64,000 nucleotides of DNA from Candidatus Latescibacterota bacterium (lineage in GTDB: Bacteria; Latescibacterota; UBA2968): positions 4,064,001-4,128,000 of the forward strand of contig OZ242311.1 of assembly GCA_965207885.1 (NCBI GenBank). The letters are read 5' to 3'. Of the stretch, positions 14,505 to 24,246 are shown piece by piece. A program made the position numbers and the translations under genes. The first letter of the stretch is position 1, and each line of letters begins with the position of its first letter. The notes beneath the pieces were generated by a model. It was given only the letters and a program-made list of their open reading frames with translations, did not search any database and had not been told where the DNA came from.

Positions 14505-14588
14505 TCAGGGTTATAGGAATAACAAATATCAATCACAGGCTTGAACACAAGCCTTAAATACTCCACCAAAAGGGGGAATGCCAAGCCT

Positions 14589-15527
14589 ATGATAGATGAA
14601 CTGAGTAAAATTCGCCATGCGCGTTTTCGTATGGAGATGGTGGCGGTTGACCGCTTAAAATTGCCGTCCTATAAAGGATCGACCTTTCGAGGAGCTTTTG
14701 GGCATGCGTTCAAAAGGCTGGTGTGTGTCAAGCGGGATATGGACTGTTCGACGTGTCTGATCTGCGCCCAGTGCGTTTATTATTATATTTTTGAGACACC
14801 GTTTAGCGGTGGGGAAGATAGCCGAGGTTACGCTTTTGCGCCACATCCGTTTGTGATTGAACCGCCCGGTGAGACGCGCCAGATTTACGAGATGGGCGAT
14901 GATCTACCCGTCGGCCTTGTTCTGGTGGGGCGGGCACTGGATTCTCTGCCGTATTTTATTTATGCCTTTGAAGAAATGGGACATCGGGGCTTGGGTACAG
15001 GGCGCGGCAAAGTTGCGCTGAAGCGGGTTGTTGCGCTGAGTGCGGCGGGCGAACAATGCATTTATGAGGCGGATACGGGCATATTGGATCTGGATTACCC
15101 GGTTTCCACGGGGTTGTCCAGTGGAGAAGAGATCGGGCCACTATTGCATCTGCGGTTGCAGACCCCGCTCCGTCTCAAAACACGGGGGCGCTATGCTTCT
15201 CGACTCGATTTTTCCTTGCTGGTGCGTGCGCTACTGCGGCGCATTTCAGATTTGACGCGCTTTCATTGCGGTGCGGAACTGGAGCTAAATTACGATCAGT
15301 GGATTGCGCGGGCAGAAAAAGTGCAGACTGCGGCGGTGAATACGCGCTGGTACGATTGGGAGCGGTATTCATTGCGCCAGGACCAAAAGATGAAATTGGG
15401 CGGTCTGGTGGGCGATGTGGTTTTTACCGGGGATATAGAGCCGTTCATGCCGCTTTTGCGCCTGGGCGCAGACTTGCATGTGGGCAAGGGCACGGGCTTT
15501 GGCCTGGGGCGTTATGAGATTTTGTGA
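14589..15527 (+). CDS. cas6: CRISPR pre-crRNA processing endoribonuclease Cas6
   Basis: GSTFRGAFG, Cys cluster, PHPFV, TPLRL and C-terminal G-rich loop HVGKGTGFGLG; lies upstream of cas1/cas2. Confidence 0.92.
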   Translation: MIDELSKIRHARFRMEMVAVDRLKLPSYKGSTFRGAFGHAFKRLVCVKRDMDCSTCLICAQCVYYYIFETPFSGGEDSRGYAFAPHPFVIEPPGETRQIYEMGDDLPVGLVLVGRALDSLPYFIYAFEEMGHRGLGTGRGKVALKRVVALSAAGEQCIYEADTGILDLDYPVSTGLSSGEEIGPLLHLRLQTPLRLKTRGRYASRLDFSLLVRALLRRISDLTRFHCGAELELNYDQWIARAEKVQTAAVNTRWYDWERYSLRQDQKMKLGGLVGDVVFTGDIEPFMPLLRLGADLHVGKGTGFGLGRYEIL

Positions 15528-15534
15528 GGGATAG

Positions 15535-17436
15535 ATGGCGGACATACAGGACATGTTGCATCAGGCGCGACAGCATATCGAGGCAGAGGAATTTGATCGC
15601 GCCGAGAGTTTGTGCGCCGATGTACTGGTGACCGATCCGGTTAGCGTGCTGGCGCACCAGTTGATGGCGCGGGTGTGGCTGGGGCGGAACGAACCAGATA
15701 AGGTGCGCGACCGCATCGCGTATCGCGACCAGTTGCCCTGCGATGAACACTATGTCGAATGGGGTCTGATCGCCGAGGAGGTGGAGGCGTTGGAAACCGC
15801 GGTTCAGATCTATGAAGACCTGCTAAAACGGGCACCGGAAAATGGCGTGGTGCTCTACCGATTGGGCCTGATCTGTCTGGAACGCGGCGAGCGGGACAGG
15901 GCCGTGGGCCTGTTGCAGCGCGTCCTGCGGGTGAGTCCAGATCACGCTGCGGCTGCTTTTGAACTGGCGCAATGCTATGTCGAAGACGAGTTGTGGGGGC
16001 TGGCCGCAGATGCCTATGAGCGGGGCCTGGCGAGCGATCCGGATAATGAGGAGGCGCAGACCGCACTTCAGGTGGTGATGGCGCGGATGCGAGAGTTGGC
16101 GCAATTGCCCAGCAGCGAGGTGCCGTCTGGAGAGGGGGCCGCGCGGCGGATGCGGATCTTATTTGCCGGACGGGAAGGGATGCATGCGCGGCAGTGGATA
16201 GATGAGGATGGTCGGGTCGGGTACAGTCCGGTGCAGGAGCCGCTTGCCGATCATCTGCTCTCTCTGCATCTGCAAGGCTCGGCGACTTTGGGCGTGTACC
16301 CGGTGCGGGCAGATCAAACAGTGCTTTTTGGCGTTATTGATATCGATATCCGCAAAAGTGCCCTGAAAGCGGGCGAGGCAGGGCAGTCCGTATCTGATCG
16401 GCTTCAAGAGTTGGTGCTGGCCGACGCCCGGCGACTATCACGGCGGTTCGATGAATTACACCTGCCGGTCTATGTGGAAGACAGTGGATACAAGGGGGTG
16501 CATCTGTGGCTTTTTTTTGCGGAGCCGGTGCCCGCGGCAGTGGTGAAGCGTTTTTTAGAGGCGGTTGTCCAGCGGGTCGGTCCGCCTGGGCCAGAGCTTC
16601 AGTGGGAAGTTTTTCCCAAGCAAGAGCAAGTCGCTGAAGATCAACTGGGCAATTTGATCAAGTTGCCGCTGGGGATTCATCTGAAGACCGGGCGAAGGTG
16701 TTTGTTCACGGATTTGGAAGGGCAAGAATACAGCGACCAGGAAGGTTTCCTCCAGCGCATCCAGCAGGTCGAGCGACAGGCTTTTGAACAGGCGGTGTCC
16801 CGATTGGTGGCGCCACCTGAACAAGGTGGTGTTGCCGGGTCAGTGGAAACACTACGAGAAGCTTTTCCCGAGTACGAAGCCCTTTTCAAGGGGTGTCCGG
16901 TGCTGGTCGCTCTGATGGAAAAAGCCGTGATTACGCATCATCTCACGCACGATGAACGCCTGGTGCTCAAGTGCGTTTTGGGACATTTGGACGATGGTGG
17001 GCACCGGCTGATCCACGGTATTATAGGGCATTGTCTCGATTACTCCGAGAAGATTACGCAGCAGCAGATTGAGCGCACGCCGCCCTATCCCATCAGTTGT
17101 CCCAAGATTCGCCAGCGTCTCCCCGAGGTTACTTCGACGGTCAACTGCGCGTGTGTGTTCGATTTGCCCGAAGGGGGGTATCCTTCTCCGCTGTTGCATC
17201 TCGATGCAACTTTTACCAGAGGTCGGTCACAAAGTGCAGACCGCCACGGGCCTCTGGTGGATAAATACGTGACTTTGCAGCGGGATTACCAGCGGTTGAA
17301 ACGCGAGTTGGCGCAACTCGAAGACGATTTGTACTATGCCATTACCTCGGCAGATCAGGATGAATTGCGGGCCGGTGGATGGATTTTGCGCCGGGATGGA
17401 GACGGGCGTTTCCAGGTGGAGGTTGACCTGGGGTGA
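15535..17436 (+). CDS. CRISPR-associated primase-polymerase (CAPP): TPR + AEP catalytic domain + Cys-rich C-terminal domain
   Basis: N-terminal TPRs; FAGRE..ARQW, GVYP, AEP motif I DID, motif II SGYKGVH, EVFPKQ, GNLIKLPLGIH..TGRR; C-terminal CP...SCPKI...CAC..YPSP; stop overlaps the cas1 start (GTGA). Confidence 0.9.
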   Translation: MADIQDMLHQARQHIEAEEFDRAESLCADVLVTDPVSVLAHQLMARVWLGRNEPDKVRDRIAYRDQLPCDEHYVEWGLIAEEVEALETAVQIYEDLLKRAPENGVVLYRLGLICLERGERDRAVGLLQRVLRVSPDHAAAAFELAQCYVEDELWGLAADAYERGLASDPDNEEAQTALQVVMARMRELAQLPSSEVPSGEGAARRMRILFAGREGMHARQWIDEDGRVGYSPVQEPLADHLLSLHLQGSATLGVYPVRADQTVLFGVIDIDIRKSALKAGEAGQSVSDRLQELVLADARRLSRRFDELHLPVYVEDSGYKGVHLWLFFAEPVPAAVVKRFLEAVVQRVGPPGPELQWEVFPKQEQVAEDQLGNLIKLPLGIHLKTGRRCLFTDLEGQEYSDQEGFLQRIQQVERQAFEQAVSRLVAPPEQGGVAGSVETLREAFPEYEALFKGCPVLVALMEKAVITHHLTHDERLVLKCVLGHLDDGGHRLIHGIIGHCLDYSEKITQQQIERTPPYPISCPKIRQRLPEVTSTVNCACVFDLPEGGYPSPLLHLDATFTRGRSQSADRHGPLVDKYVTLQRDYQRLKRELAQLEDDLYYAITSADQDELRAGGWILRRDGDGRFQVEVDLG

Positions 17437-18431
17437 TTCTCTATGTGACAGATCAGGGTACGGGGGTTTATCGCCGCGGAGAGCGGTTGCAAGTTCGGCG
17501 GCACAAGCAAGTGCTGACCGAGGTGCATTTGCACGATCTGGAACAGGTGGTGCTTATGGGGCAAATCGCGCTTTCTTCTCAGGCGATGAGCACGTTGCTC
17601 GAAAAAGGGGTGGATACGGTTTTTCTGAGTACCAATGGACGGTATCGGGGGCGGCTGGTTGGCCCAGCGCGGCGCAATGTGGTGTTGCGACAAAAGCAGT
17701 TTAAGTGCTATGAGGATGAGCAGTTTCGTCTGCGTGTGGCGCGGGGTGTGGTGGAGGGTAAACTCCGCAATATGCGGACGCTGCTCATGCGTCTGGCGCG
17801 GCGGCGCAAGGTGGATGTGGGCACGGTGGCGCATAGATTGCGCCGGTCAATTCAGCAGGTGGGACAGGCGACCAGTGCCGAGTCTCTGCGCGGGATTGAG
17901 GGGGCGGGCACCGCGGCTTATTTTGGTGTGCTTGGGGCTTTTTTCCCCGAAGGATTCGCGTTTCAGGGGCGCAACCGCCGTCCGCCGAGAGACCCGGCCA
18001 ACGCGCTGCTCAGTTTTGGGTATGCCCTGCTGGGCAATAGCATAGAAGGCGCGATTTATCTGGTTGGTCTCGATCCGTATCTGGGTTTTCTGCATGTGGT
18101 TGATTATGGGCGTCCTTCTCTATCACTGGACTTGATGGAGGAGTTTCGGCCCGTGCTGGTGGATGCGCTGGTGCTGGATTTGATCAACCACAATCGGGTG
18201 CAGAGCGCGGATTTTGAAGCGCGGGATGGGGGCGTATTTTTGCAGGGCGAGGGCCGCAAGCGGTTGATTGAGGGGTACCAGCGACGTCTTGAAGACCGGG
18301 TAACTTATCCCGTGGGGGGCGAGCGGGTGGAGCGGATTTCTTACCGGCGTTGCCTCGAATATCAGGTGCGTCGATTGGCGCGGGTGATTATGGGCGAGGA
18401 GGCTCAGTACAGGGCTTTTCTGGTGCGTTGA
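17433..18431 (+). CDS. cas1: CRISPR-associated endonuclease Cas1
   Basis: LYVTDQG, LRGIEG, RNRRPPRDPANALLSFGY, GLDPYLGFLH, SLSLDLMEEFRP. Confidence 0.97.
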   Translation: MILYVTDQGTGVYRRGERLQVRRHKQVLTEVHLHDLEQVVLMGQIALSSQAMSTLLEKGVDTVFLSTNGRYRGRLVGPARRNVVLRQKQFKCYEDEQFRLRVARGVVEGKLRNMRTLLMRLARRRKVDVGTVAHRLRRSIQQVGQATSAESLRGIEGAGTAAYFGVLGAFFPEGFAFQGRNRRPPRDPANALLSFGYALLGNSIEGAIYLVGLDPYLGFLHVVDYGRPSLSLDLMEEFRPVLVDALVLDLINHNRVQSADFEARDGGVFLQGEGRKRLIEGYQRRLEDRVTYPVGGERVERISYRRCLEYQVRRLARVIMGEEAQYRAFLVR

Positions 18432-18474
18432 GATGTTTGTAACGATCCGCAGGCATGTCCCTGCGGGTGTAAGC

Positions 18475-18522
18475 AGGGATGGACACAGAGAAAAAATGAG
18501 GGATGGACACAGAGAAAAAATG
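18475..18522 (+). repeat. Perfect 24-bp tandem duplication at the cas2 start
   Basis: AGGGATGGACACAGAGAAAAAATG at 18475-18498 and 18499-18522. Confidence 0.9.
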
Positions 18523-18795
18523 TTTGTGACGATTTGTTTTGATATCAGTTCTGACCGCACGCGCCGGCAGGCGACCCGGGTGCTGGAGGCTTATGCAACG
18601 CGGGTGCAAAAGAGTGTGTTCGAATGTCGCATTGCCGAACGGCAATTTGTCGAGTTGCGGCAGCGCATGAGTCAAATTGGTCTGGCTGAAGGCGATCTGG
18701 TGCGCTATTATACGCTGTGTCGCGCATGCGAGCGTAAGATCGAGTTTACCGGCGGTTCTCCCCCGCAGGATGAAAAAGATCATCTGATTGTTTGA
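18520..18795 (+). CDS. cas2: CRISPR-associated endonuclease Cas2
   Basis: MFVTICFDIS..R, RVQKSVFEC, D.VRYY.LC..C; alternative in-frame start at 18433. Confidence 0.95.
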   Translation: MFVTICFDISSDRTRRQATRVLEAYATRVQKSVFECRIAERQFVELRQRMSQIGLAEGDLVRYYTLCRACERKIEFTGGSPPQDEKDHLIV

Positions 18796-19054
18796 TAGCT
18801 GGTCTTTGCGACCCGGATTAGAAAGGGTTTGTCAATATGGCGCATTGAATTTCTACTGCTTTTAATCGGTGGGAATTAGCTACGTCACTTAACCCTATTC
18901 TGGGTCGCGAATTTGTAATTTCTTGTCCTACAATAGATTAACAGAAAGGGACTTCTATGATTGAAGAAAAATGGATGGATAAACGCCTGTCAATATGGCC
19001 TGAGTCGCAAAAGCACCTCAAACAGACTGTGACTCAACAAGTTAGAAAGGAGGG
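18796..19054 (+). promoter_or_regulatory. CRISPR leader
   Basis: AT-rich non-coding stretch between cas2 and repeat 1; GCGACCC/GGGTCGC inverted motifs; TGTCAATATGGC direct repeat at 18830 and 18988. Confidence 0.8.
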
Positions 19055-19248
19055 ATTGGAAGGAATTGACCCGCTCATAGAGGATTGAAACTTAATATAC
19101 CTGTTGGCAGGTTATCGGAGTGGTCATTTGACGAATTGGAAGGAATTGACCCGCTCATAGAGGATTGAAACTTAATATACGTTTCATGGATCTTCCGGTC
19201 GCCGGCGTAGATTGGAAGGAATTGACCCGCTCATAGGGGATTGAAAAC
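19055..19248 (+). CRISPR. Short CRISPR array: 3 repeats, 2 spacers
   Basis: Repeat ATTGGAAGGAATTGACCCGCTCATAGAGGATTGAAAC (37 bp) at 19055-19091 and 19135-19171; variant ...ATAGGGGATTGAAAAC at 19211-19248; spacers of 43 and 39 nt. The ATTGAAAC 3' end gives + orientation. Confidence 0.96.
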
Positions 19249-19269
19249 TTCGTCATCAAGGGATATGTC

Positions 19270-20991
19270 GTGCAGATCGCGGAACCCGTATTGAAAGCCA
19301 TCCAGGACAGAGGCAGACGAGGATTGCCCCTTGAGAATATTTATCGACACCTCTACAACCCGGACCTCTTTTTACGCGCTTATGGACGGCTGTATCGAAA
19401 AGCTGGCGCGACCACACAGGGCATTACAAAAGAGACCACAGATGGCATGTCTATGGCGAAGATCAATGCCCTCATCGAGGCATTCCGCTGCGAGCGGTAT
19501 CAATGGACGCCTGTTAAGCGCATCTATATTCCCAAAAAAAATGGGGGGCGGCGTCCGCTCGGCATACCGGTTTGGTCTGATAAACTGGTGCAAGAAGTTA
19601 TGCGATCTTTGTTGGGCGTCTATTATGAACCCCAATTTAGTGACCTGTCCCACGGCTTTCGGCCTCAACGGGGCTGCCATTCTGCACTTGCGGAAATTTT
19701 GAGATGGAAAGACATAGACTATTTTATCGAAGGCGATATCAAAGCCTGTTTTGACAGTATTGATCACGAATGTCTGCTGTCTATTTTGAAGGAGAAAGTC
19801 CGCGATGATCGGTTTATCGACTTAATTGGGGATTTGCTCAAGGCCGGATGCGTCGCGTACGGGCGTTACGAATCTACTCCGAGTGGTACGCCACAAGGCG
19901 GTCCCATTAGTCCACTTCTCGCAAACGTTTATCTCGACAGGTTGGATGAGTTCGTCGAAAATACGCTTGTGCCTCTTTACACAACGGGCGAGAAACGCAT
20001 AGAGGCGAGTTGGAAGACGCCAGAGGAGTTGCAGAGGGTTCTGAAGATATTGGATACGCAGGGTCCCGATTTTAGACGTATTCGCTATATCCGATACGCC
20101 GATGATTTTTTGATCGGTTTTACCGGGCGAAAGGCAGAGGCTAAAGAGATCAAACAATGTCTCAAAGAATTTTTGCAAGAGACGCTGAAATTGGAACTGT
20201 CAGAGGACAAAACCTCAATTACCCACAGCCGCAAAGAGACAGCACACTTTCTCGGATACGAGATCAAGAATCTGAATGGGTCAACGCAAAATACACTGAG
20301 CCTGAGTGTGCCGAAAAAAGCCGTGAAAGAGAAGTGTAGCTTGTATCAAAAACGCGGGCGTGTCACATACTGTGCCGAACTGCTGCATGACAGCGATTGG
20401 GAAATCATAAGTCTTTTTCAGAGTCGATATATCGGATATGTGCAATACTATATTTTCGCACACAATGTCCATATCTTAAACGTATTGCGCTGGGTGATGA
20501 GTGCGTCTTTGCTCAAGACGCTTGCGAAAAAGCATAAGACACATGTGAATCAACTTATGAAGCAGTATAAAGCGACTATCCAGACGCCTTATGGCCCGCT
20601 GACGTGTTTGGAGATGCCTGTTTTGTGTGAAGGTGGGCAATTGAGGACGGCGCGTTTTGGTGGCTTCTCTCTCAGGCCGAGGGAAGGCATACCCCTTGCA
20701 GACCGCGACCCAAACAGGGAGATGCGGTGCAAGGGGATAGAACTGATCCAGCGCTTGCTGTCAAACCAGTGCGAATGCTGCGGCGCAACAGGCCAGGTGG
20801 AAGTGCATCATGTCCGAAAACTTGTCCATAGAGAAGGGCAAGTATCAGAGCACACATGGATGCGAGACATGGTTACACGAAAGCGAAAAACCCTTATCGT
20901 GTGCAAAACATGCCACCAGGCAATCCATTCTGTGACAAAAACAAGGAAGAAAAACAGGTATCGGGGAATGCACGCAACACAACGCCAGTAA
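19270..20991 (+). CDS. Group II intron-type reverse transcriptase/maturase with domain X and HNH endonuclease (LtrA/ML-like), apparently lacking intron RNA
   Basis: RPLGIP, SHGFRP..GCH, EGDIKACFDSIDH, GTPQGGPISPLLANVYL, YIRYADDF, LSEDKT, FLGY; domain X (YVQYY, SLLKTLAKKHK); CECCG..VEVHHVRKL..CKTCHQAIH. Confidence 0.93.
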   Translation: MQIAEPVLKAIQDRGRRGLPLENIYRHLYNPDLFLRAYGRLYRKAGATTQGITKETTDGMSMAKINALIEAFRCERYQWTPVKRIYIPKKNGGRRPLGIPVWSDKLVQEVMRSLLGVYYEPQFSDLSHGFRPQRGCHSALAEILRWKDIDYFIEGDIKACFDSIDHECLLSILKEKVRDDRFIDLIGDLLKAGCVAYGRYESTPSGTPQGGPISPLLANVYLDRLDEFVENTLVPLYTTGEKRIEASWKTPEELQRVLKILDTQGPDFRRIRYIRYADDFLIGFTGRKAEAKEIKQCLKEFLQETLKLELSEDKTSITHSRKETAHFLGYEIKNLNGSTQNTLSLSVPKKAVKEKCSLYQKRGRVTYCAELLHDSDWEIISLFQSRYIGYVQYYIFAHNVHILNVLRWVMSASLLKTLAKKHKTHVNQLMKQYKATIQTPYGPLTCLEMPVLCEGGQLRTARFGGFSLRPREGIPLADRDPNREMRCKGIELIQRLLSNQCECCGATGQVEVHHVRKLVHREGQVSEHTWMRDMVTRKRKTLIVCKTCHQAIHSVTKTRKKNRYRGMHATQRQ

Positions 20992-20996
20992 TCCAT

Positions 20997-21020
20997 GTAG
21001 GGGCGAGGCATGCCTCGCCC
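20997..21020 (+). repeat. GTAG-type REP-like hairpin
   Basis: GTAG-GGGCGAGGCA/TGCCTCGCCC perfect palindrome; related copy at 33255. Confidence 0.7.
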
Positions 21021-21081
21021 GTGCCCTTCATTGCGGTGTGGTATTGCGTTGCACCACCCAGGCTGAACATAAGGAGAATTC

Positions 21082-21228
21082 ATGGTCAAACAGATATTAT
21101 TATGTACCGTCGGAGGCTCTCATCAACCGATTCTCGAAGCAATTAAATCATCGTCACCGTGCCATGTCTGTTTTTTTGCACGGACCGCCTCCTTCACATC
21201 CCATAACCAGCGAAGGAACAATCCATGA
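21082..21228 (+). pseudogene. Truncated, frameshifted paralog of the N-terminus of the downstream TIGR02710-like CARF gene
   Basis: RBS AAGGAG, then MVKQILLCTVGGSHQPILEAIKSSSPCHVCFF versus MSETILLCTVGGSHQPILAAIETNSPKLVCFFCT; one more T in the T7 run would give CFFCTD. Confidence 0.82.
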
Positions 21229-22487
21229 GCGAAACCATCCTTCTTTGCACCGTTGGCGGCAGCCACCAGCCTATCTTGGCGGCCATTGAAACAAACAGTC
21301 CGAAACTCGTTTGCTTCTTCTGTACCGAAGGACAGGCTGGTTCCGAGGTTCAAGTAATCGGCGAGGGCAAAGTTATCAAGGACAAACTGCAAGACAGCAA
21401 AGCAACATTGCCCAATATCCCCACCCAAGCGCGAGCGCAGGGTTGGAATGGTACCTATAAGATAAAGATCGTCCCTCCAGACGATTTGGATGGGGCCTTC
21501 TTTGTTATCCGAAATACGATCCTAAAATTGGCCCATAAGTATCCCAATGCCGAATTGGTGGCTGACTACACCGGTGGCACAAAGACGATGACGGCGGCCT
21601 TGGTCAGTGCTGTGTTGGATACTGAGCGCGTCGAGCTCCAACTCGTTGCTGGCGAACGCAGAGATCTCATACAAGTGATTCCGGATACCGAATTGTCGGT
21701 CGTCGCCAGCGTGACCCGATTGCTGATTGATCGTGACATCAAGCAATTTCTGGCCGCTTGGCGTCATTTCGGCTACCACGAAGCAGCAGAAGGGCTGAAG
21801 AAAGTGCGTATCGCGGCTGATTCGCCCGACTTTGAGCGTTTGCACCAAGCATATATGTTGAGTCAGGGCTTAGCATTGTGGGATAGATTCGATCACGCTG
21901 GCGCACTTGAAAAGATTCAACCGCTGGAGCAAATTAAAGCTGCCTATCCGTATATGATGCCGACGCTGGGACAGCTTAAGGCAGACCGAGAACAAGCTCT
22001 CTTATTCGACCTCTGGTTAAATGCCGAGCGGCGTGCGGCCCAGGGTCGCTTTGACGATGCGATTGCGCGGTGGTATCGCATGATGGAGTGGACAGCCCAA
22101 TGGCAACTCCGAACGAAACTCAACGCCGATACCGGGGACTTTTCAGGCGATTTGCTGCCGAAGCAGGTTCAGGCGGCCCCGGATTCAGATGGTAAAATTA
22201 AAATTGGGCTTTGGAAGGCATGGCAAGTCGTAAAATACCGTTGCGAACTATCGGGTCCTGCTCAGGACTTCATCAAAAAGCACGGATCAAAGCTCCTCGA
22301 TTTACTCGAGATTCGCAACAATTCGATACTGGCTCACGGTTTTTGTCCTGTGAGTTCTTCGAACTGGCAAGAGGTGCATAATTGGACACAAGATAAATTC
22401 CTGCCCGTTCTGCGTACCCTGGCCGAAGAAGTGGGCTTGAAAAGCGAGCCGAAACAACTCCCGACCGAATTTCCAGAGAGCATCTGA
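21225..22487 (+). CDS. CRISPR-associated CARF-HEPN effector (TIGR02710/Csm6-like)
   Basis: CARF motifs CTVGGS.QP and DYTGGTKTM; RFDDA.AR.YR; HEPN motif RNNSILAHG. Confidence 0.88.
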   Translation: MSETILLCTVGGSHQPILAAIETNSPKLVCFFCTEGQAGSEVQVIGEGKVIKDKLQDSKATLPNIPTQARAQGWNGTYKIKIVPPDDLDGAFFVIRNTILKLAHKYPNAELVADYTGGTKTMTAALVSAVLDTERVELQLVAGERRDLIQVIPDTELSVVASVTRLLIDRDIKQFLAAWRHFGYHEAAEGLKKVRIAADSPDFERLHQAYMLSQGLALWDRFDHAGALEKIQPLEQIKAAYPYMMPTLGQLKADREQALLFDLWLNAERRAAQGRFDDAIARWYRMMEWTAQWQLRTKLNADTGDFSGDLLPKQVQAAPDSDGKIKIGLWKAWQVVKYRCELSGPAQDFIKKHGSKLLDLLEIRNNSILAHGFCPVSSSNWQEVHNWTQDKFLPVLRTLAEEVGLKSEPKQLPTEFPESI

Positions 22488-22641
22488 ATTGTGTCCGACA
22501 ATCACAGCCTTGCTGATACGTTTGTACGAGGCGGATTGTCACTGATGAGACACAGAATGGTGTGAATGGTAGAGATATATTGTCAGGGCACAAGTAGCCG
22601 TGCTGGCAGATTTATTTTGACAAAAATGAGAGGGTAATCAG

Positions 22642-24246
22642 ATGGCAACAGGCAAAATCATGAATTGGAAAGGAAAATACGGATTTATTGAAAATGATGC
22701 TGGAGGGCAAAATGTTTTCTTACACATCAATGAAGTTGATCAAGACGATAGAGGATTCTTGACTAAGGGCACAAGAGTTGATTTCGATATACAAGAAGTG
22801 CCTCAAGGATTGGCAGCAAATAATGTTCGTTTCTTGAAATTTCACAATCCATATACCTTTGTCCCTACCCCTCCGCGTCAGGATGCAATAAAAGCGGGTG
22901 GGTTTGCTGGCGATTTTGATCCCTTGGAGTGTGGTCTCAGCCATGCATGTCTTGATCCGGATCTATGGACAGGACATCTGCCAATCAAGCTGACCACGGT
23001 CACACCCCTGGTATTGCCGAAAACTGATGGTGAAGAACGTTTGTCAACTGAGCACCAAACTTATGATGTCCTCAACTATTTGCCGGAATCGTCCCTGCGC
23101 GGCATGTTGCGAAGTGCCTACGAAGTGGTGACGAACTCGCGCTATAGTTGTTTTAGCAACGATGACCGATTGAAGTTTCGTTTAGGTCGAGAAAAGAGAA
23201 CATATGAAAAGAGTCCCAAAGACCTTCTCGACTTCTCACTAAGATCAGCGGATAAGATGAGTAAGCTGTCTCCCGCGGATCGTTTGTTCGGGTGGGTACC
23301 TCAGCAATCCGGTAGCGACCAGGGGTACAAGGGCCGCATACGGGTCGTTTGTGAAGATGATGCACGATCTGAGATTATCCAACACTTTGATGGTAAAGAC
23401 TTGCCATTGACGATCCTCGGAGAGCCAAAACCCGCACAAGGCCGTTTTTATGTTGCTAAAGATAAAAAAGGTACGCCGCAAGAAGATGGCATTAGCAAGG
23501 AGCAAGCTGGCTACAGTGGAGGTAAGGGCTTACGAGGTCGGAAGCAATACTGGCACCATAAAGGGCTGGAAGCGGGTCAGGCACGAGACTATTGGAAATC
23601 GTCAGTAGATGACCGAACGCAGCAACAAAACAATGGTCGGTATCAAGAATATCGCCGTCCCAATAAAAATGGAGAGCCACAAAAAGATGCTCAAAACCGC
23701 AGCATTACCGGATGGATTAAGCCAGGTACGGTTTTTAAGGCATCCCTATATGTACAAAATCTGCAAACTGAAGAAATTGGTGCATTGCTTTGGCTGCTAT
23801 CGCTTCCCTCAGACCATTACTTCCGGCTGGGATATGGCAAGCCATTGGGTTTTGGCAGCGTGAGGATAGAGGTTGATGAGGAGCGATGTGTAAATGGATG
23901 TCTGCCACTCGGCACTGGCAAAGATTGGAAAAGCTACTATGCAACCTTTTATACTTCCCCACCGGCAACACTAAATGAGGACCAACGAAAGGGCTGTATT
24001 CAAAAATTTAAGGCCAGTATGGTAGCTGCGTACGATTCAAAACATTTTAATAATCTACCTTTTATCAGCGGATTTCTGAAAGTTCTAAAGGGTCCAAAAA
24101 AAGATGCACCCATTCACTATCCACGGCTGGAATACAAACCCAATCCCAAAGGCGAGAATTTTCGATGGTTCGTCGCAAATGAAAAAGGTAAAAGACTTGC
24201 GCTTCCAGCGGTTACAGCGAAGAAGGGGCTACCTTATCAACCCTGA
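22642..24246 (+). CDS. Type III-D Cas7-family RAMP (TIGR03986-like) with N-terminal cold-shock domain
   Basis: MATGKIMNW..KYGFI...VFLH cold-shock RNP motifs; FHNPYTFVP, SSLRGMLRSAYEVVTNS, SPADRLFGWV, LRGRKQYWHH, LGYGKPLGFGS. Confidence 0.88.
   Translation: MATGKIMNWKGKYGFIENDAGGQNVFLHINEVDQDDRGFLTKGTRVDFDIQEVPQGLAANNVRFLKFHNPYTFVPTPPRQDAIKAGGFAGDFDPLECGLSHACLDPDLWTGHLPIKLTTVTPLVLPKTDGEERLSTEHQTYDVLNYLPESSLRGMLRSAYEVVTNSRYSCFSNDDRLKFRLGREKRTYEKSPKDLLDFSLRSADKMSKLSPADRLFGWVPQQSGSDQGYKGRIRVVCEDDARSEIIQHFDGKDLPLTILGEPKPAQGRFYVAKDKKGTPQEDGISKEQAGYSGGKGLRGRKQYWHHKGLEAGQARDYWKSSVDDRTQQQNNGRYQEYRRPNKNGEPQKDAQNRSITGWIKPGTVFKASLYVQNLQTEEIGALLWLLSLPSDHYFRLGYGKPLGFGSVRIEVDEERCVNGCLPLGTGKDWKSYYATFYTSPPATLNEDQRKGCIQKFKASMVAAYDSKHFNNLPFISGFLKVLKGPKKDAPIHYPRLEYKPNPKGENFRWFVANEKGKRLALPAVTAKKGLPYQP

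Follow-up and report, generated by a model that had tools for sequence, protein, structure and literature searches.

Two neighbouring spacers of a small CRISPR array begin with the same nine nucleotides, TTAATATAC, and this common 9-mer is real and non-random. It is probably the scar of one inaccurate integration, in which 46 bp were duplicated instead of 37. The array was analysed in its window, a term used here for the whole 64,000-nucleotide (64-kb) stretch of DNA under study, and positions refer to this window unless a chromosomal coordinate is given.

Results

The array and the shared 9-mer

Three direct repeats of 37 nt spanned 19055-19248 on the forward strand. The leader-proximal repeat 1 (19055-19091) was followed by the first copy of TTAATATAC (19092-19100), by the 34 nt that we call spacer 1 proper (19101-19134), and by repeat 2 (19135-19171), which has the same sequence as repeat 1. 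The 39-nt spacer 2 (19172-19210) opened with the second copy of TTAATATAC (19172-19180), and the terminal repeat 3 (19211-19248) closed the array. The 9-mer lay directly 3' of repeats 1 and 2, and the exact duplicate was 46 nt long (19055-19100 and 19135-19180). Repeat 3 differed from repeats 1 and 2 in two respects: it had G for A at position 27, keeping the ancestral GGGG, and it carried an extra A before the final C in its 3' handle. Directly 3' of repeat 3 stood TTCGTCATC, which agrees with TTAATATAC at 4 of 9 positions, as expected from the initial annotation, according to which the third repeat is not followed by the motif. Taken together, the three direct repeats, the unrelated spacers, cas1 and cas2 upstream, and the conserved leader identify the locus as a CRISPR array. 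Given the 37-nt repeat, whose border was confirmed by seven orthologous arrays, the spacer lengths of 43 and 39 nt first assigned to the array and the placement of the 9-mer in spacer position were both borne out.

The 9-mer consists of A or T at eight of its nine positions. Only two copies of it were found in the window, where 0.16 were expected from shuffled sequences, and 15 copies (11 forward and 4 reverse) were found in the 6.23-Mb genome. From the base frequencies at each position in 258 spacers of orthologous arrays, the probability that two spacers have the same first 9 nt was calculated to be 6.3e-6, which agrees with the original view that the match is not due to chance.

Mis-assembly had been named at the outset as one way in which the pattern might have arisen, and the check was carried out with contigs from two studies, which matched the assembly. 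Contigs of run X1 tiled 18462-19700 without any difference from the assembly, and the 46-nt unitig at 19055-19100 had about twice the depth of its neighbours (110 vs 59-66). Furthermore, a 151-nt contig from a separate study (X6), corresponding to 19072-19222 and taking in the two 9-mers and the two spacers as well as the beginning of repeat 3, showed 0 differences. Coverage by another run (X5) leaves out the array itself.

The adaptation module and neighbouring genes

The genes preceding the array are all encoded on the forward strand. The cas6 gene (14541-15527; PF10040 CRISPR_Cas6, E 9.8e-20), which is 88-90% identical in the orthologous loci L024 and L025, is followed by a gene for CAPP, a CRISPR-associated primase-polymerase with an N-terminal TPR region (15535-17436; NF040561 PrimPol_Msp and PF22548 AEP-TOTE). 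CAPP scored 365.2 bits against a cut-off of 200 for NF040561 over residues 70-597, corresponding to primase-polymerase type A1. The next genes are cas1 (17433-18431; PF01867, E 4.1e-101; TIGR00287, 312 bits with a cut-off of 71.7) and cas2 (18433-18795; PF09827 over residues 30-102). A leader of 259 nt (18796-19054, forward strand) separates cas2 from repeat 1; its alignment with seven orthologous loci shows strong conservation over the final ~100 nt, up to ...AAGTTAGAAAGGAGG right before the repeat. On the other side of the array, a gene for a group-II-intron-like reverse transcriptase (RT) with maturase and HNH domains (19270-20991, forward strand; PF00078, PF01348, and PF21368) starts 22 nt past repeat 3. 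The order of the module is accordingly cas6-CAPP-cas1-cas2-(array)-RT, with the array between cas2 and the RT gene.

Further downstream, a CARF-HEPN gene was followed by type III-D effector genes, which code for a cold-shock-domain-fused RAMP protein, a Csx10-like protein, a Csx7-like protein, and Csx19. Two type III-D markers scored above their cut-offs, namely TIGR03984 (Csx19; 67.5 vs 35) and the RAMP model TIGR03986 (253.4 vs 161.35). The Csx10 model TIGR02674 gave 91.2 with a cut-off of 177.3, and the Cas10/Csm1 model gave 21.8 with a cut-off of 170. The locus is a type III-D(-like) CRISPR-Cas locus. In the RAMP gene (22642-24246; TIGR03986, 253 bits), the cold-shock domain is fused to the N-terminus of the type III RAMP protein.

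The RT scored 277 bits against TIGR04416, under the cut-off of 300. Insertion of a group II intron into the array was considered and rejected: no Rfam match to a group II intron RNA was obtained at E up to 1 in 17000-24000, and the RT gene is found at the same place in relatives. Because of this conserved position, the RT is regarded as a resident part of the module, not as an intron invading the array. The protein keeps its maturase and HNH endonuclease domains as well as a YADD motif, with no intron RNA around the gene. The RT may be co-transcribed with the array, with a 5' end made by Cas6.

Several further features of the module were recorded. The start of cas2 contains an 87-bp insertion (18433-18519) that is absent from relatives; it is lacking in locus L024 and in contig X7 of a relative, which jumps from 18432 to 18520. 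The insertion comprises a small hairpin and a 24-nt unit in tandem (18475-18522); the first ~15 nt of cas2 recur on its flank as a near-duplicate, and other parts of the genome contain four incomplete copies, 31-46 nt in length. As the insertion preserves the reading frame, Cas2 is either 29 residues longer or begins at the ATG at 18520, which is probably the ancestral start. The leader carries TGTCAATATGGC twice (18830-18841 and 18989-19000). The second copy lies within the block CCTGTCAA(A/T)ATGGCCTGAGTCGCA, which is near-invariant in all seven orthologous leaders; the integrase or some host factor could bind there. A second CAPP-cas1-cas2 set was also found in the same genome (G000:C1:5773753-5775621, L034). 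Its CAPP is 43% identical to the one described above, and upstream of it the fetched stretch contains a short array whose 37-nt repeat is a different one. Sets of this second CAPP type were also seen in 5-6 further members of the phylum.

Spacers in orthologous loci

The repeat of the window was found in no other array of its own genome, and a search of the phylum's 167 remaining genomes that allowed up to 3 mismatches did not find it either; an exact 21-mer of it was likewise found in neither genome-contig nor metagenome-contig collections. The 5' ends of spacers were accordingly tabulated in orthologous arrays, whose repeats are related to that of the window. A CAPP match was present in 18 of 168 phylum genomes (G000, the genome of the window, included), nine of them at 78-93% identity, and 15 stretches were fetched around the CAPP relatives. 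Seven of the nine orthologous loci were used, in which arrays of 14 to 86 repeats directly follow cas2. The remaining two, L029 and L031, were left out, as the k-mer finder gave no usable array in the fetched stretch.

Cas1 was 80-95% identical in the orthologous loci, and the order cas6-CAPP-cas1-cas2-array-RT recurred. The RT gene, at 61-88% identity, was found after the array in four of the seven loci (L024, L025, L027, and L028); of the other three, one is on a contig that breaks off within its array, and no RT was seen in the two remaining stretches. The repeat is 37 nt long in all seven arrays and has GGGGATTGAAAC or GGGGTATTGAAAC at its end, with ATTGAAAC in common. As in the window, conservation of the leader extends to the edge of the first repeat.

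The seven arrays yielded 258 spacers of 33-53 nt with a mode of 38 nt. Lengths of 37, 38, and 39 nt accounted for 50, 78, and 55 spacers, respectively, whereas 34 nt occurred three times, 43 nt once, and 30 nt never; spacers of 34 nt or less numbered four in total. None of the 258 spacers contained TTAATATAC. The first nine spacer positions were not conserved, the commonest base at any of them reaching at most 0.40. Apart from two whole-spacer duplicates, no common prefix of at least 5 nt was seen in 251 adjacent pairs, and none longer than 6 nt was seen in 6,496 pairs within arrays. The same picture emerged from 59 spacers in three arrays that accompany the second CAPP type; none of these spacers had the motif. 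In the small arrays of L034, L037, and L038, the repeat borders were mis-set, and apparent common prefixes, which proved to be parts of the repeat, were not counted.

The tabulated 5' ends of these 258 spacers, which stand next to related repeats, are variable. The lack of both the motif and any common 5' block in relatives indicates that a constant adaptor or a 46-nt repeat is not a property of such modules.

A mild excess of T was observed at spacer positions 1 and 2 (0.40 and 0.38, respectively; 258 spacers of the L024-L032 arrays), which could reflect a preference at capture or integration. Individual arrays also showed irregularities. Two repeat variants, with TT or CC at positions 23-24, occur in blocks in L024 (genome G075), and the CC variant comes with a G-to-A change at repeat position 8. 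The array of L030 (G087) ends in two degenerate repeats and a tandemly duplicated 50-nt unit, and one 39-nt spacer of L032 (G135) appears twice in a row. These irregularities are signs of recombination or slippage within arrays.

Source of spacer 1

In a short-query BLAST search against the own genome, positions 10-43 of spacer 1 gave a perfect match (34/34, E 5e-13) to the minus strand of G000:C1:5004468-5004501. The limits of the match coincide exactly with the 9-mer on one side and with repeat 2 on the other. The chromosomal flank on the 9-mer side, ctggtgtca, differs from the 9-mer at all nine positions, and the opposite flank is tgtatcata. The 34-mer was absent, at up to 3 mismatches, from all 20 other genomes of the genus. 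Spacer 1 proper is a 34-bp piece of the cell's own chromosome. As the match ends at the 9-mer and the flank is unrelated, the 9-mer did not arrive with spacer 1.

The initial annotation had proposed a search with and without the 9-mer, in which a source matching only the downstream portion would speak for an added tag, and such a source was obtained for spacer 1. The same result contradicts, for spacer 1, the suggestion that the 9-mer was captured from the conserved terminus of a virus or mobile element, because ctggtgtca occupies its place in the chromosome.

The protospacer lies near the 3' end of an uncharacterised open reading frame (ORF) of 373 codons. Spacer 1 has the same sense as this ORF, and its crRNA would therefore not pair with the mRNA. 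The source gene and its tandem paralogue together lie at G000:C1:5002939-5005515 (L040:4937-7461); the two ORFs, of 373 and 381 codons, both start with MNP.EERLNQLE, adjoin subtilase-like genes, and match no family in Pfam, PHROGs, or NCBIfam.

Spacer 2

Searches with spacer 2 gave no comparable match. The best hits in the own genome were 15 nt with 1 mismatch, and no protospacer was found in the 168 genomes of the phylum. A 21-mer of spacer 2 was found in none of the metagenome, genome, and viral contigs, and three more sub-patterns, including the junction between the 9-mer and the rest, were not found in viral contigs. BLAST searches against phages and plasmids returned only chance-level matches, the best with an E of 0.1 and none covering 80% of the query.

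Considering the length distribution in relatives, where 39 nt is common (55/258) and 30 nt never occurs (0/258), lengths of 34 and 39 nt fit the two spacers far better than 34 and 30 nt. The variable guides of 34 and 30 nt envisaged by the initial annotation were accordingly upheld for spacer 1 and not for spacer 2. The first two bases of spacer 2 are TT, which agrees with the slight preference for T seen in relatives. From the geometry and the lengths, we infer that the 9-mer is native to spacer 2.

Discussion

Proposed origin of the duplication

The proposed sequence of events would be as follows. Before the event, the leader-proximal unit of the array would have consisted of a repeat and the 39-nt spacer 2, natively starting with TTAATATAC. 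A 34-bp fragment of the own chromosome would then have been integrated, the first attack taking place correctly at the leader-repeat junction and the leader-distal attack occurring 9 nt inside spacer 2, not at the repeat-spacer border. The single-stranded gaps would in this case comprise the repeat together with the first 9 nt of the old spacer, and gap filling would duplicate all 46 positions. The product would read leader, repeat, 9-mer, new 34-nt spacer, repeat, 9-mer, and remainder of spacer 2, with repeats 1 and 2 being the copies of the template repeat used in the event.

In the alignment with the seven relatives, the 46-nt duplicate starts at the base after the conserved end of the leader. 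A 34-bp insert between direct duplicates of 46 bp that begin at the leader-repeat junction would result from a staggered-cut integration in which the leader-distal cut alone was displaced, by 9 nt. The duplicate is longer than the repeat, and the extra bases lie outside the protospacer of the new spacer, as a displaced cut would leave them. The 34-nt spacer is short for this family, in which lengths up to 34 nt were seen in 4 of 258 cases. No second slip of this kind was found among the 251 adjacent pairs in relatives; the event is therefore rare, and its prior is low. As a consequence of the event, crRNA 1 would carry nine unrelated nucleotides between the 8-nt tag and the guide. We infer that this 9-nt offset, together with the mRNA-sense orientation, would make the self-derived spacer harmless.

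Other explanations of the shared 9-mer

A different explanation is that in this strain every spacer is preceded by TTAATATAC. Such a constant block could take two forms: a stably shifted ruler might have produced a functional repeat of 46 bp with an extended crRNA tag, or CAPP or the RT might add a fixed, templated 9-nt adaptor to prespacers. Both spacers of the array (2/2) do carry the 9-mer, which in spacer 1 is not derived from the protospacer, and no protospacer of spacer 2 was found to contradict the idea. CAPP moreover has primase and polymerase activities and associates with Cas1-Cas2 (PMC8211822). However, neither the motif nor a conserved 5' block occurs in any of the 258 spacers of the seven orthologous arrays, although these loci are close relatives by CAPP (78-93%) and Cas1 (80-95%) and all have 37-nt repeats. 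A constant block would also reduce spacer 2 to 30 nt, a length missing from the relatives, it does not account for TTCGTCATC after repeat 3, where only 4 of 9 positions agree, and a 46-bp unit would itself need one slip to arise. We therefore consider a constant block improbable. The more specific claim that the module of this strain puts TTAATATAC before every new spacer, by a templated adaptor or a 46-bp ruler, giving crRNAs with a 17-nt 5' tag, seems to us decidedly improbable. The constant primer or adaptor added by CAPP or RT, as proposed in the initial annotation, is not supported in view of the variable 5' ends and the absence of the motif in systems with such similar CAPPs, and the extended crRNA tag, which would be expected in the orthologous systems too, fared no better.

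Untemplated nucleotides could instead have been added independently to both prespacers by the RT or a terminal transferase. Non-coded tails are described for RT-Cas1 systems, and the 9-mer is A/T-rich (8/9 positions). Known tails are, however, 1-6 nt long, A-rich, and variable, whereas the block here has 9 nt of mixed A/T sequence and recurs unchanged in two spacers, a pattern left unexplained by random addition; nor are such tails a conserved feature in relatives with the same RT. This origin is very unlikely. Ordinary spacers of 43 and 39 nt, taken by chance or from a shared source whose protospacers natively start with the same 9 nt, are not inconceivable in themselves, as a coincidence of 6e-6 per spacer pair can occur somewhere across very many windows. 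Yet spacer 1 has a single match, which covers 34 nt and breaks off precisely at the 9-mer, nine mismatches in a row beside 34 perfect matches are unlike divergence, and a 43-nt spacer occurs once in 258; we give this reading almost no credence. Equally little can be said for an assembly artefact: repeats are often mis-assembled, but the X1 contigs match the assembly throughout the region, with roughly twofold depth for the 46-nt unit, and the X6 contig has 0 differences, so that the chance of such an artefact is minute.

Repeat position 27 and a possible ruler

If the 9-mer is the scar of a 46-bp duplication, the sequence of the two duplicated repeats deserves attention. Repeats 1 and 2 read ...TAGAGGATTGAAAC, with a G-to-A change at position 27 that interrupts a GGGG motif; repeat 3 and 7 of 7 relatives, with G at this position, keep the motif whole. 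A CCC/GGG hairpin predicted next to the 8-nt handle has a calculated energy of -4.6 kcal/mol in repeat 3 vs -1.4 in repeats 1 and 2, and the GGGG motif and the CCC/GGG stem lie 8-11 nt from the cut. By analogy with other CRISPR types, the change at position 27 may have favoured the slip, and GGGG or the stem could be a ruler anchor that helps to position the second cut. We suggest only tentatively, and with some doubt, that the natural G-to-A change at position 27 might mark the ruler anchor of a so far unstudied type of integrase. Our literature search found no ruler study for the CAPP/RT type III-D integrase.

Comparison with known systems

Displaced second cuts have been described in other systems. 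In the type II-A system of Streptococcus thermophilus, mutated repeats led to a leader-distal attack eight bases into the spacer (Kim et al. 2019, PMC6895254). The first site stayed correct in these mutants, and a ruler element near the second site sets the repeat length (PMC6895254). The geometry proposed here resembles that of the type II-A mutants in that the leader-distal cut lies inside the spacer and the cut at the leader-repeat junction is correct (PMC6895254). Unlike these engineered mutants, the present case concerns a natural type III-D array with CAPP and RT, a shift of +9, and a product fixed in the genome.

Repeat mutants of the type I-B system of Haloarcula hispanica duplicated 29-33 bp, not 30 (Wang et al. 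2016, PMC4872114). One of them copied the G downstream of the repeat, and the G-rich mid-repeat motif GTGGG acts as a ruler anchor (PMC4872114). A duplication running from the leader-repeat junction to a mis-measured end would be common to H. hispanica and the present array (PMC4872114), but the size errors there were 1-3 bp, whereas the one considered here is 9 bp, and the type and the repeat differ. In the Escherichia coli type I-E system, two ruler anchors were located within the repeat, at distances to the active site of 8 and 16 bp (Goren et al. 2016, PMC5039180), in an integrase family context other than that of the CAPP/RT type III-D locus (PMC5039180).

Among RT-associated systems, one report describes 1-6 non-coded, A-rich, and variable nucleotides at the junctions of RT-Cas1 systems (10.1101/2023.09.01.555893). 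Our array is similar to RT-associated type III systems in having non-protospacer nucleotides between repeat and spacer (10.1101/2023.09.01.555893); it differs from the RT-Cas1 tails described there in that the block has 9 nt, the same ones with which the neighbouring spacer begins.

CAPPs have priming and polymerising activities and bind Cas1-Cas2, with examples from types III-A and III-B (Zabrady et al. 2021, PMC8211822). The protein encoded at 15535-17436 is like those CAPPs in matching the NCBIfam type A1 model and in its operon-like arrangement with cas1 and cas2. Unlike these examples, it belongs to a III-D-like locus, with a separate HNH-bearing RT after the array. The data presented here show no link between CAPP and the 9-mer.

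Implications

The finding reveals no new adaptation chemistry; the array most likely documents, in nature, an adaptation error of a known class, in a type of system for which our literature search found no ruler study. A common spacer prefix combined with a protospacer that excludes this prefix provides a diagnostic for such events. The GGGG motif and the CCC/GGG stem offer a testable hint on how the length of the repeat may be measured in CAPP/RT type III-D systems. The self-derived spacer appears to be tolerated, probably through its mRNA sense and the 9-nt offset. Duplication of 46 bp instead of 37 bp, a kind of error known until now mainly from engineered repeat mutants, would thus be able to occur and persist naturally.
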